Source of the DNA: a virus
Lineage: Duplodnaviria; Heunggongvirae; Uroviricota; Caudoviricetes
Length of the DNA: 10,025 nt
Direction: 5' to 3' (one strand)
IMG/VR virus record: IMGVR_UViG_2693429733_000018
The stretch's first letter is position 1. Each line of letters starts with the position of its first letter. This document shows, piece after piece, positions 6,204 to 9,199 of the stretch. Both the position numbers and the translations under genes were made by a program. The notes below the pieces were generated by a model that was not told the origin of the DNA, made no database searches, and saw nothing but the letters and a program-made list of their open reading frames with translations.

Positions 6204-6280
6204 CCGCCATTAGCTCATCAGGAAAGAGCGCCAGCCTTCGAAGCTGGCTGCGCGGGGTTCAAGTCCCCGATGGCGGTCCA
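6204..6280 (+). tRNA. argN: tRNA-Arg (anticodon TCG), second copy
   Basis: Identical to 3795-3871. Confidence 0.8.
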
Positions 6281-6293
6281 TTATCTGCATCAT

Positions 6294-6370
6294 GCGTTGT
6301 TAGCTCAGCCGGACAGAGCAATTGCCTTCTAAGCAATCGGTCACTGGTTCGAATCCAGTACAACGCGCCA
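6294..6370 (+). tRNA. argO: tRNA-Arg (anticodon TCT), third copy
   Basis: Identical to 3885-3961. Confidence 0.85.
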
Positions 6371-6384
6371 CACTTATTTTCCCT

Positions 6385-6410
6385 GGCTCGCTTTTGCGGG
6401 CCTTTTTTTT
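6385..6410 (+). terminator. Intrinsic terminator after tRNA cluster C
   Basis: Identical to 3976-4001. Confidence 0.7.
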
Positions 6411-6432
6411 AAATGTCTCACAATTCAGACGG

Positions 6433-6469
6433 TTGACAGTTGTCTGTTTTGCGGGGAGTTTGTTAAAAG
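6433..6469 (+). promoter_or_regulatory. Promoter of module C
   Basis: Identical to 4024-4060. Confidence 0.45.
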
Positions 6470-6607
6470 AAACTGGCATGGTGAATCCCCCTGTGCGGAG
6501 GGGCAATCAGCGAGTAGGTATATGGGATAATCGCGGATTCAGGTGCTGGTACTGAATTCACCGGGAGGCACCCGGCATCATGCAATGGCACATAGCGCCA
6601 CTCTCCA

Positions 6608-6630
6608 GCCCTCTCCGGAGGGGCTTTTCT
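6608..6630 (+). terminator. Module C terminator, weakened (one C lost from the 5' arm gives a bulge; T tract reduced to TTTTCT)
   Basis: GCCCTC-TCCG-GAGGGGC then TTTTCTGTG; compare the perfect hairpin and longer T-rich tail at 4199-4234. Confidence 0.45.
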
Positions 6631-6819
6631 GTGCCGGATACATCACAGTTTCTGGAACCTTAGGTACTACAGTATCAGTCAGGGTGCTATATTTTCAGAT
6701 GTGATGAAAGCCTGTCAGCAGGCAGGGCGTATCGGAAATGACCCAGTAGAGAAAACGTTGACTCAGATACCGGTGCTGAGTTACCGGGAAACCGGCATCA
6801 CATGACCGCTATCCTTCCA

Positions 6820-6846
6820 GGCCCATCCGCTCCGGTGGGCCTTTTT
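6820..6846 (+). terminator. Intrinsic terminator-like hairpin upstream of module D (GGCCCATC...GGTGGGCC followed by T5)
   Basis: Stem of 6-8 bp and a T run read from sequence. Confidence 0.5.
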
Positions 6847-6899
6847 ACTGCAGAAAACAGGTTCCCCGTTAAATGCTATGTTGCTCACAATTCAGTAAG

Positions 6900-6936
6900 T
6901 TGACAGTTGCCTGTCAGACTGGGCATTTGTTAAAAA
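6900..6936 (+). promoter_or_regulatory. Promoter of divergent module D (TTGACA; extended -10 TGtTAAAAA)
   Basis: Same element order as modules A-C with diverged sequence; nearest such promoter upstream of the nanS-p/lysis genes. Confidence 0.4.
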
Positions 6937-7093
6937 AATTTCGCATGGTGAATCCCCCTGAGCGGAGGGGCGACTGGTGACGGTATAATCTCTGATTATC
7001 AAAACGAGAATGACGCGGGTTTAGTGGCACCGGGCTGAACTCACCGGGAGGCACCCGGCACCATGTGCATGATGATACAGATACGCGGCTTTA

Positions 7094-7117
7094 GCCCCTC
7101 TCCGGAGGGGTTTTCTT
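7094..7117 (+). terminator. Module D terminator (GCCCCTC-TCCG-GAGGGG followed by TTTTCTT)
   Basis: Hairpin conserved with modules A-C; shorter T tract. Confidence 0.6.
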
Positions 7118-7130
7118 GTGGGCAAAAAAA

Positions 7131-7152
7131 GCCCGCGCTGGGAGACGCGGGC
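7131..7152 (-). terminator. Minus-strand intrinsic terminator candidate (GCCCGCG-loop-CGCGGGC, followed by T7 on the minus strand)
   Basis: A7 run at 7124-7130 precedes the hairpin on the plus strand, so the T run follows it on the minus strand. Confidence 0.35.
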
Positions 7153-7345
7153 GGCAAGGAATAAACAATAAAACGTGAAGTAATATTTCAGCTGGCGAAT
7201 AATACCCCATAGTAATCACTCTGCGCAACTGCGCGGTCTTTTTCGAATTGCGGGCTGTCGTCTCTCTTCTGCCATTGTCCTGTAACTTCCGGACTTCAGC
7301 CCGCTCCTTATTTTACTCACAATATTATCCCGGCCGGGAGGATTC

Positions 7346-9199
7346 ATGGCATTTAAACACTATGACGTGGTCAGGGCGGCATCGCCGTCAGACCTTGCGA
7401 AACGACTGACACAAAAACTGAAGGAGGGCTGGCAGCCGTTTGGTAGTCCGGTGGCCATAACCCCTTATACCCTGATGCAGGCGATTGCAGCAGAAGGTGA
7501 TGTGGTCGTCAGTGGTGCAACTGAGCCGGAGTGGTACTACGTCATCGTACTGGCCGGGCAATCCAATGCCATGGCTTACGGTGAAGGTCTTCCGCTTCCG
7601 GATTCATACGATGCGCCCCATCCGCGCATTAAGCAACTGGCCCGTCGTAACACAGTGACTCCCGGTGGTGAAGTATGCGTATTTAACGACATCATTCCTG
7701 CTGACCATTGTCTGCATGATGTTCAGGATATGAGTACGATTAACCATCCCCGGGCTGACCTGAGCAAAGGGCAGTACGGCTGTGTCGGACAGGGCTTACA
7801 TATTGCCAAAAAACTGCTTCCGTATATCCCTAATAATGCGGGGATCCTGCTGGTACCATGCTGTCGTGGTGGTTCGGCATTCACCCAGGGCACGGAGGGG
7901 ACATTCAGCGAGTCCACGGGGGCCAGTCAGGATTCGGCTCGCTGGGGAGTGGGTAAGCCGTTATATCAGGATCTGCTTTTCCGCACGAAGGCAGCATTGC
8001 AGAAAAACCCGAAAAACGTTTTGCTGGCGATATGCTGGATGCAGGGGGAATTCGATATGACGAATGCCAGTTACGCCCAGCAGCCAGCAGCATTTCTTGC
8101 AATGGTACAGCAGTTCCGTGCTGACCTTGCCGGGCTGGCGGCGCAGTGTCACGGTGGAAGTCCGGCATCAGTCCCCTGGATTTGTGGCGACACGACATAC
8201 GCGTGGAAACAAGAACACGGTACGCAATATGAAGTGGTATATGGTGCATATAAAGGTAAAGAATCCCAGCAGATTTATTTTGTTCCCTTTATGACCGATG
8301 GTAGCGGAGTTAATACACCGACAAACAACCCGTCAGAAGATCCTGATATTGCCGGGTCTGGTTATTACGGTTCGGCATCCCGAACGAACAAAAACTGGGT
8401 ATCATCAAATCGCCCGACGCATTTCAGCTCATGGGCGCGTCGTGGCATTATTCCCGATCGTATGGCAACTGCTATTCTGAACGTAGCCGGTCGCACCTTA
8501 GCCTTCATTAGTGGTAAGGCACCGGAAATCAAACCCTCGCCCGGCGGCGACACGCCATCGGGGCCGTCTGAAGATGCATCCATACGCACAATCTCCCTGT
8601 TGCCGACAGCCGGAGACGCTGCTGCGCAGGGCTGGAGCATTAAGAATGGCGGAGTTCAGTTGTCAGATGGTGTATTTAAGATCACCAAGCAGAGCAATAA
8701 AGCCTGGTCCCTGACGCGCCCGGTGGATGACGCAGTCTCCCTGCTGACACGGGGTGGCAGACTGAGCTGTAAGTTTCGACTGTCAGGCGCACTGACCACC
8801 AACCAGTTCGGTCTGGGAATTTATCTGTATACCGATGTAGCGTTACCTGACGTCGTGGCGATGACCGGGACTGGTAACCCGTTCCTGATGTCGTTCTTCA
8901 CCCAGACCACAGACGGCAAACTGAATCTGATGCATCACAAGAAAGCAGGAAACACAAAGTTGGGCGAGTTCGGGAATTACAGTAACGACTGGCTGACGCT
9001 GGAGCTGGTGTTCACCGCCGGCAGTGCCACGGTTACTCCGAAACTGAATGGAGTGGCTGGCCCGGCATTCCAGGTCATAAAAGACAGTCTGACACTGGGG
9101 CTGAATGCGCTGACGCTGACGGATATTACCAAAAATGCAGCGTATGGCGTTGAGATAGAAAGTCTGGTGCTGGAGATAAATGCACCGGCATCATCATAA
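7346..9199 (+). CDS. nanS-p: Prophage sialate O-acetylesterase-like protein (NanS-p type): N-terminal DUF1737-like segment, SGNH/SASA esterase domain with GQSN motif, C-terminal domain of unknown function
   Basis: Strong RBS GGGAGGA 5 nt before the ATG; N-terminus MAFKHYDVV and motif VLAGQSNAM match my recollection of NanS-p esterases encoded downstream of stx in lambdoid prophages. Confidence 0.75.
   Translation: MAFKHYDVVRAASPSDLAKRLTQKLKEGWQPFGSPVAITPYTLMQAIAAEGDVVVSGATEPEWYYVIVLAGQSNAMAYGEGLPLPDSYDAPHPRIKQLARRNTVTPGGEVCVFNDIIPADHCLHDVQDMSTINHPRADLSKGQYGCVGQGLHIAKKLLPYIPNNAGILLVPCCRGGSAFTQGTEGTFSESTGASQDSARWGVGKPLYQDLLFRTKAALQKNPKNVLLAICWMQGEFDMTNASYAQQPAAFLAMVQQFRADLAGLAAQCHGGSPASVPWICGDTTYAWKQEHGTQYEVVYGAYKGKESQQIYFVPFMTDGSGVNTPTNNPSEDPDIAGSGYYGSASRTNKNWVSSNRPTHFSSWARRGIIPDRMATAILNVAGRTLAFISGKAPEIKPSPGGDTPSGPSEDASIRTISLLPTAGDAAAQGWSIKNGGVQLSDGVFKITKQSNKAWSLTRPVDDAVSLLTRGGRLSCKFRLSGALTTNQFGLGIYLYTDVALPDVVAMTGTGNPFLMSFFTQTTDGKLNLMHHKKAGNTKLGEFGNYSNDWLTLELVFTAGSATVTPKLNGVAGPAFQVIKDSLTLGLNALTLTDITKNAAYGVEIESLVLEINAPASS

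Follow-up and report, generated by a model that had tools for sequence, protein, structure and literature searches.

Module D, a promoter, hairpin and terminator unit at positions 6880-7117 on the plus strand of a 10,025-nucleotide stretch of Caudoviricetes DNA (IMG/VR virus record IMGVR_UViG_2693429733_000018; the whole stretch is called the window), is an intact copy of STnc100, an already known and catalogued small RNA (sRNA) family of lambda-like prophages. Alignment of homologues supports the conclusion that its hairpins are RNA structure under selection, not coincidence. We consider it likely that D is an autonomous sigma-70 unit giving a predicted ~175-nt Hfq-associated sRNA in the lysogen, in which a variable linker (7067-7092) is the seed, as in the sRNA PasD, and the 5′ domain is a structured scaffold.

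Module D is an intact STnc100 copy

The preliminary description, made from the letters alone, had placed a fourth module with promoter, hairpins and terminator at 6880-7117, after three copies that we call A, B and C. This fourth module is real, as each conserved string occurs exactly four times on the plus strand of the window and in none of 200 shuffles (CATGGTGAATCCCCCTGNGCGGAGGGG at 1534, 4068, 6477 and 6944; CACCGGGAGGCACCCGGCAYCATG at 1616, 4150, 6559 and 7042; the upstream box TCACAATTCAGNNNGTTGACWGTTGYCTG at 1475, 4009, 6418 and 6885). When the window was scanned against all Rfam families, all four modules matched RF02076, "Gammaproteobacterial sRNA STnc100", whose curated gathering threshold is 47 bits: D scored 161 bits (match at 6914-7123, E 5e-37), B 134, A 132 and C 124. 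A covariance model of our own also found the plus-strand RNAs of D (6943-7117, ~175 nt; 94 bits), A (1533-1692), B (4067-4224, for which an MFE [minimum free energy] fold was also obtained) and C (6476-6634), the last with a G-U wobble in P1 and a terminator one C short. Besides scoring above the threshold, D can form helices P1, P2, P4 and P5 and the terminator, and it lies in the family's context, between Q and the lysis genes. Sequences at least 99% identical to D occur in ~230 complete Escherichia coli genomes, including that of the type strain, and RefSeq annotation is absent there.

The description of D as having the same ends as the other copies, with a different sequence between them, was accurate. 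Compared with B, identity is 73% in the promoter (-60 to -1), 97% from P1 to P2, 100% in P5 and the P1 3′ strand, and 84% in the terminator, while the variable segments are 45% (the region after P2), 64% (P4) and 53% (linker) identical. The conserved blocks in D are the upstream box (6885-6913), 6944-6970 and 7042-7065. Although the sequence between the shared ends differs, it is not unstructured: P4 and a pseudoknot strand lie there, and both are compensated between D and A-C. The label "divergent" fits the middle of D, which differs from A-C, but not the module as a whole, since D is nearer the family consensus than they are (161 vs 124-134 bits). A 15-nt segment of D is missing from A-C. 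By these measures, D is the most canonical copy, not the aberrant one.

The 5′ domain covaries and contains a pseudoknot

Independent MFE folds of D, B and a further copy, E (described below), revealed the same architecture. An 8-bp P1 that starts at the first transcribed nucleotides closes a junction; inside it are P2, which is short and rich in G-C pairs, then a variable insert, P4 (8 bp) and P5 (5 bp). Three prime of P1, the folds contain a largely single-stranded linker and then the terminator. In the MFE fold of D, the P1 5′ strand (GCAUGGUG, 6943-6950) pairs with the 3′ strand CACCAUGU at 7059-7066, a strand also defined by pair counts among homologues. P2 (CCCCCUGAGCGGAGGGG, 6954-6970) was found in both the Rfam alignment and the MFE fold. 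P4 (GGGUUUAG/CUGAACUC, 7017-7042) carries one pseudoknot strand in its loop, and P5 (CCGGGAGGCACCCGG, 7044-7058) abuts the P1 3′ strand.

We examined homologues for covariation, taking their diversity from a scan of IMG/VR; a pattern scan of genome contigs gave 14 loci, several of which were chance matches in unrelated metagenome-assembled genomes. When 25 diverse members were aligned with plain MAFFT, standard pairs filled 88% of the pair cells, compared to 43-52% with the partners slid. The preliminary description had argued from natural covariation among the copies and proposed a structure-aware alignment that included database homologues. Such an alignment, guided by the model and containing 141 matches (94 distinct), bears the argument out: 91.5% of pair cells were paired vs 41-49% when slid, P1 and P4 covary, and none of 500 shuffles of the 94 distinct homologues attained the observed pairing values. 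In this set, 16 pairs changed on both sides, comprising all eight pairs of P4, five of P1 (chiefly the outer three) and three of P2, the last through rare variants only. The outer three base pairs of P1 covary, with one pair split almost evenly (AU:42 vs GC:41). In the main family, P2 and P5 hardly vary, with P5 99% paired, and P2 is compensated in the E lineage.

A second interaction links the junction to P4. In nearly all of 36 non-redundant domains, the P4 loop is complementary to the 5-9 nucleotides that directly follow P2, and the helices formed have more than 15 different sequences. In D, strand a (CUGGUG, 6974-6979) pairs with strand a′ (CACCGG, 7028-7033) in the P4 loop; the corresponding sequences are AUCAGC/GCUGGU in A-C and CCAGUC/GACUGG, CUAGAC/GUCUAG or AAUGAC/GUCAUU elsewhere. 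Mean duplex energy was -8.9 kcal/mol for cognate strands vs -4.6 kcal/mol for non-cognate strands, and none of 5000 permutations attained the cognate value. Since the strands are ordered a, P4 5′ strand, a′, P4 3′ strand, this pairing is a pseudoknot. Strand a′ is preceded by 2-4 nt and followed by 0-1 nt, a geometry that would fit coaxial stacking on P4. The pseudoknot is neither in the Rfam structure line nor mentioned in the preprint on the Pas RNAs discussed below.

The preliminary count of four copies was correct for A-D and missed a fifth. Copy E (6699-6846, plus strand) lies between C and D, with an extended -10 (TGcTATATT, 6685-6693) and a terminator (6819-6842); its Rfam match (6675-6848, 30 bits, E 0.0017) is below the threshold. 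An independent MFE fold of E has the same P1/P2/pseudoknot/P4/P5 architecture (z -2.6), built from largely different sequence: P1 is AUGUGAUG/CAUCACAU, P2 is GCCUG-UCAG-CAGGC, P4 is GACUCAG/CUGAGUU, P5 is CCGG-GAAA-CCGG and the pseudoknot is UAUCGG/CCGGUG. A variant of E that is 86% identical keeps P2 and the pseudoknot by further compensated changes. Of 5426 complete E. coli genomes, 673 carry the E lineage, and the order C-E-D is the standard layout of a common prophage, found, for example, in ATCC 11775, where the three are 100% identical to those of the window. E is the strongest evidence for natural covariation in the window. Because P1, P4 and the pseudoknot show compensated changes, including those in P4 and the pseudoknot that separate D from A-C, and because copy E is recoded, we conclude that RNA pairing is under selection and that the hairpins are genuine RNA structure, one of the two readings put forward in the preliminary description.

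Module D has a predicted sigma-70 promoter and an interchangeable 3′ tail

The upstream box common to A-D, TCACAATTCAG-N3-GTTGACAGTTGCCTG (6885-6913 in D, plus strand), gave four exact pattern matches vs zero expected. Judged from the predicted +1, the TTGACA within it lies 7 bp further upstream than a -35 would. From geometry and homology, we predict a sigma-70 promoter at 6907-6936 on the plus strand, in which a spacer of 18 nt follows the -35 TTGCCT (6907-6912) and the -10 is extended, TGtTAAAAA (6928-6936). If +1 is G6943, the geometry is canonical: TAAAAA falls at -12 to -7 and TG at -15/-14, with TTGCCT 18 nt upstream. The 5′ end of PasD2, a 172-nt RNA, maps by RNA sequencing to the homologous G of GCAUGGUG. 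In 20 of 40 non-redundant upstream regions, which otherwise have little common sequence, -10-like hexamers are concentrated at one offset, and textbook TTGAC-17-TAAATT promoters occur in many of the 40. A strict promoter scan calls TTGAAA-17-TAAATT in a Salmonella-type member, and RpoD signal was detected at STnc100 promoters of Salmonella LT2 by ChIP-exo (chromatin immunoprecipitation with exonuclease digestion) (PMC10794520).

The predicted start site would affect how other reports on STnc100 may be read. The Rfam model begins ~29 nt upstream of the likely start (model positions 1-29; window 6914-6942). Pairing with stxB has been proposed to occur via model positions 5-15 (PMC12370729), which are probably outside the transcript made from the module's own promoter. 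Similarly, a single-nucleotide polymorphism (+90) and a T deletion (+103) after stx2B are associated with haemolytic uraemic syndrome (HUS) (PMC12711010). If +1 is G5059 in the Stx2 phage F039 (locus L002), the STnc100/EcOnc27 promoter would contain both, in its extended -10 and discriminator (L002 5044-5058; numbering ± ~1 nt), and HUS variants at that site would then be promoter variants, not changes in the RNA body. Separately, the conserved TCACA of the upstream box forms the right half of a CRP-like site (window 6874-6889, centred at -61.5 from the predicted +1), and in the Stx2 phage this site is near-consensus (TGTAA-N6-TCACA, L002 4990-5005); a role for CRP at either place is speculative.

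At the other end of the RNA, the linker (7067-7092, plus strand) occupies the position of the seed inferred from experiments for PasD and is wholly unlike the linker of A-C. In the MFE fold, most of its nucleotides are unpaired, the last few joining the base of the terminator stem. A terminator scan identified the intrinsic terminator AGCCCCUCUCCGGAGGGGUU (7093-7117, plus strand), in which a terminator-like hairpin (7093-7112) is followed by TTCTTGTG and the U-rich tract runs from inside the called stem to 7117. Strict terminators are present in 29 of 47 non-redundant 3′ tails, 16-31 nt after P1, and several other tails have terminators that by eye are imperfect. Unrelated 3′ tails are joined to the same 5′ domain exactly at the P1 3′ strand, and the tail of D is also found on an A-like domain. 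In one Salmonella-type member (L033 5334-5631), an extension of ~160 nt separates the 5′ domain from the terminator, for an RNA of ~295 nt; tails resembling this extension occur in several other loci.

We also considered two other identities for the element. A tRNA mimic was rejected, as ARAGORN and the Rfam tRNA model call only eight true tRNAs. We likewise rejected a small open reading frame (ORF) beginning AUG GUG AAU, which would run for 11 codons in D and for 25 in A-C; the Salmonella-type members have GUG UGG UGA there, and the frame is not conserved.

STnc100 relatives are Hfq-associated sRNAs

Eleven STnc100 copies are expressed in uninduced EDL933, one of which was confirmed by northern blotting (PMC5331693). 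The copy beside stx2 overlaps the Hfq-bound sRNA EcOnc27/sRNA103 (PMC12711010; PMC7873438); EcOnc27 was bound to Hfq in CRAC (crosslinking and analysis of cDNAs) and confirmed by northern blotting (PMC7873438). D resembles EcOnc27/sRNA103 of Stx2 phages in its promoter type, 5′ domain, position upstream of nanS-p/yjhS and convergent-partner arrangement. Unlike the Stx2-phage copy, D has another linker and terminator, and no stx upstream. Some phage records annotate STnc100 75 nt after stx2B, upstream of yjhS/nanS-p.

A 2026 preprint proposed that PasD1 and PasD2, which were found in enteropathogenic E. coli (EPEC) by RIL-seq (ligation and sequencing of interacting RNAs) and lie directly upstream of a sialate esterase gene, are structural homologues of STnc100. 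The stability of PasD depends on Hfq, and its RIL-seq seed is within the linker (PMC8550237). PasD1 and PasD2 of EPEC E2348/69 share with D the position directly upstream of the esterase gene, P1, P2, P4 and the pseudoknot, which in PasD is AAUGAUC/GAUCAUU; PasD also starts with GCAUGGUGAAUCC, as does D. PasD differs from D in scoring 38-41 bits against RF02076, below the threshold, in having lost P5, and in its seed, CCUUGUGAG. In an alignment, this seed was absent from D, and the linker of D was unrelated.

Q has its own late promoter cassette

The preliminary description implied that D is a Q-responsive promoter and terminator cassette driving nanS-p. This was not supported, since Q has its own cassette directly after the gene and D is without its elements. 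The Q of the window is lambda-type (PF03589, E 1e-31) and shares 39% identity with the C-terminal portion of lambda Q; it is encoded by a partial ORF at 51-452 (3-452 in frame), duplicated at 1711-2040. In a direct comparison with lambda pR′, we identified the late promoter cassette at 2046-2145 on the plus strand, with -35 TTGATT, -10 TAAATT (2068-2073), pause box AACGATGGG (2080-2088) and a tR′ hairpin (~2123-2145). The layout directly after Q is thus TTGATT-16-TAAATT-6 nt-AACGATGGG plus a terminator, compared to TTGACT-17-TAAATT-TGACTC-AACGATGGG in lambda. A second pR′/pause/tR′ copy is at 417-516 on the plus strand. Copy 1 of the cassette has AACTATGGG as its pause box, not AACGATGGG, and the Q stop codon is lost there through a 9-bp deletion.

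In five unrelated prophages of IMG/VR, a conserved pR′ cassette also lies downstream of Q, and an STnc100 unit follows as a separate element. The combination of -10 TAAATT, 6 nt and pause box (AACGAT+GGG) is absent from 6880-6960 and present at 2046-2088 and 417-459. We therefore rejected D as a Q-loading site, since the lambda-like pR′/pause/tR′ elements are elsewhere and missing from D. D is, as described, the copy nearest nanS-p (ORF 7346-9199); between the terminator of D and the nanS-p start at 7346 are a minus-strand terminator (7131-7152) and a plus-strand terminator-like hairpin (7221-7236).

D does share features with the products of such cassettes. In lambda, the pR′-tR′ transcript is the 194-nt 6S RNA. 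Like lambda pR′-qut-tR′/6S RNA and StxS, D is predicted to give a short, constitutive, terminated transcript between Q and the lysis genes. Unlike lambda pR′-qut-tR′ (where qut is the Q-utilisation site), D is without the lambda-like -10/pause box layout. StxS is a pR′-tR′ by-product turned Hfq sRNA (PMC7873438), and the pR′ cassettes of the window are predicted to give a short StxS-like transcript.

Module D lies in a rearranged array beside a convergent sRNA candidate

A convergent sRNA candidate of ~54 nt (7124-7177, minus strand) has a strong terminator at 7131-7152 and agrees with a 52-nt RIL-seq candidate of EPEC, E2348C_1409.1408.IGR, at all but four of the latter's positions. It abuts the STnc100 terminator of D on the opposite strand. 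In at least eight Sakai prophages, sRNAs form such "dyads" (AsxR/EcOnc27 and AgvB/EcOnc06), for which the rationale was described as unclear (PMC7873438). D and the minus-strand candidate reproduce this convergent arrangement of enterohaemorrhagic E. coli prophages. AsxR occupies the same place in an Stx2 phage; in our Rfam scan, the AsxR and AgvB models had no match in the window at E up to 1, and the partner RNA is not AsxR or AgvB. A supposed PasA homologue between nanS-p and the holin gene was rejected, having no real similarity.

In every locus inspected, the module is between Q/pR′ and the lysis genes. Three IMG/VR prophages (L079, L027 and L043) carry tandem arrays of three to five STnc100-type modules, ~250-260 nt apart, between Q and the lysis genes. 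In the window, terminators are enriched at 6380-7360 (11 vs 0.9 expected). The window as a whole is in no complete E. coli genome, with a best coverage of 80%, as seven pieces. It is a rearranged, duplicated array with an insertion sequence (IS), derived from a common ~6.3-kb layout. The truncated 5′ end of a second nanS-p copy (4849-4979) is cut by a minus-strand IS element (5019-~6110), and a tRNA-STnc100 unit is duplicated around the truncated nanS-p and IS (3712-4224 and 6121-6634), as is part of Q (1711-2040).

Discussion

In the model we favour, the late operon of a lambda-like prophage would carry D as a "moron", placed after Q/pR′ and before the nanS-p and lysis genes. In the lysogen, host sigma-70 polymerase would start at ~G6943 from the extended -10 promoter and stop at 7093-7117 to give the ~175-nt RNA. 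The first ~124 nt would form a compact domain, a P1-closed junction with P2, P4, P5 and the pseudoknot, while the next ~26 nt would be largely single-stranded and, with the terminator, make up the Hfq-binding, target-pairing part. During lytic growth, Q-modified polymerase from pR′ would read through D, as in the established lambda model. We establish family membership, the fold with its covariation, the geometry of promoter and terminator, the genomic context and the existence of a separate Q cassette; for expression, Hfq binding and the position of the seed, we rely on published work on homologues. We infer that D itself acts in trans and that its 5′ domain is a stability or scaffold element. 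The 3′ tails differ, and they are exchanged at the P1 3′ strand, so that different targets are expected for D, A-C and E.

Several points weigh against this model. No target or phenotype is known for D, and the literature describes the function of EcOnc27 and PasD as "not elucidated". The elaborate, pseudoknotted 124-nt 5′ domain would be superfluous for an sRNA made of seed plus terminator, and the model leaves it unexplained. The strict consensus scan did not call the promoter of D, so that the predicted +1 rests on homology and geometry. The U-tail of D (UUUUCUU) is short for a canonical Hfq sRNA, compared to U8 in PasD, and that of A and B (CUGUUUAUAUU) is worse. Finally, the linker of D pairs no better than chance with any of six translation starts tested in the window. 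Among all 24 tests of the D, A, C and E linkers against these starts, none was significant, including the best local pairings (E linker vs nanS-p, z -2.6; A vs the methylase gene, z -3.0). The E linker UAUCCUUCC (6800-6822) is complementary to the nanS-p Shine-Dalgarno region (7315-7375; -23 kcal/mol, likewise not significant).

We think it unlikely that the module acts in cis in the late transcript, either by supplying extra terminators that keep polymerase lacking Q off the lysis genes or as processing or stability punctuation of the long Q-dependent mRNA, with the short RNA a by-product. Such a role would agree with a module that is always between pR′/tR′ and the lysis genes in the same direction, with tandem arrays of up to four or five modules (five in the window), with the terminator enrichment, and with the precedent of StxS and reviews that call the reason for the arrangement unclear. 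However, a bare terminator would suffice, and the covarying 5′ domain, the module's own promoter at a fixed distance and the Hfq-dependent target pairing by PasD would all be unexplained. In another alternative, the 5′ domain would be a protein- or ligand-binding, riboswitch-like sensor that tunes the module's own terminator, and so transcription into nanS-p and the lysis genes. Its multi-helix junction with pseudoknot, near-invariant junction and loop nucleotides, covarying stems and variable downstream terminator are conserved as in riboswitches, and its architecture resembles that of SAM-I (S-adenosylmethionine-I)-type aptamers, where a closing helix bounds a multi-helix junction and a junction strand forms a pseudoknot with a hairpin loop. 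This resemblance is an architectural analogy only; unlike SAM-I-type riboswitches, D matched only STnc100 in Rfam and has no conserved alternative pairing with the terminator. Although the terminator 5′ strand GCCCCUC of A-D is complementary to the P2 3′ strand GAGGGGC, other members have unrelated terminators without complementarity to the domain, and domain and terminator coexist in the MFE folds, leading us to reject a riboswitch-style antiterminator. Moreover, the "invariant" P2 and P5 stems and loops are changed in copy E, discrete terminated RNAs of homologues are abundant in lysogens, and the minus-strand terminator and plus-strand hairpin at 7131-7152 and 7221-7236 separate D from nanS-p. 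We regard a sensor as quite improbable.

We considered two further alternatives. In one, D is a Q-utilisation cassette (late promoter, qut and tR′), such that Q in trans would let transcripts from the D promoter enter nanS-p. Its promoter-plus-terminator layout, its place upstream of late genes and an RNA length near that of lambda 6S RNA would fit. We give this idea very little credence, as the lambda-type Q has its cognate cassette, in lambda layout, directly 3′ of the gene, the same pR′ cassette precedes STnc100 in the five unrelated prophages, D is without the pause box and Q-binding spacer, and the upstream regions of the family share only generic -35/-10 elements. In the other, the invariant blocks would be DNA-level homology "linkers" for lambdoid prophage recombination and have no RNA function. 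A single 5′ domain with unrelated tails joined exactly at the P1 3′ strand, the tail of D on an A-like domain, the 47 non-redundant tails and a window that is a rearranged, duplicated array beside an IS are what such recombination could leave behind. Selection on RNA pairing, seen in how changes in P1, P4 and the pseudoknot are compensated and in the full recoding of copy E, speaks against this, making it extremely unlikely as the primary function; recombination probably contributes to sequence uniformity. In a further reading, which we hold fairly unlikely, the ~110-125-nt 5′ domain (P1/P2/P4/P5 and the covarying pseudoknot that joins J2/3 to the P4 loop) would be a functional module of its own, a conserved fold to which a factor of the host or phage binds, or which has an effect on polymerase or RNases, and onto which interchangeable seed and terminator tails are grafted.

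Together, our results confirm that the hairpins are covarying RNA structure and set module D apart from the Q/pR′ switch. The pseudoknot, the modular organisation of 5′ domain and 3′ tail, the tandem arrays and the cryptic E lineage may be of modest novelty. If the 5′ domain does function as a separate module, STnc100, PasD and E-type genes would be a modular platform and not ordinary Hfq sRNAs, with the E lineage an unannotated sister family. A structural model that includes the pseudoknot, swappable 3′ tails and a diverged sister copy missed by standard annotation provide handles for mutational work. STnc100-type RNAs adjoin stx2 and the lysis genes of pathogenic E. coli, and a 2025 study ranked variants lying immediately upstream of the EcOnc27/STnc100 transcript with the top predictors of HUS (PMC12711010). 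As read here, those variants are located in the EcOnc27/STnc100 promoter.

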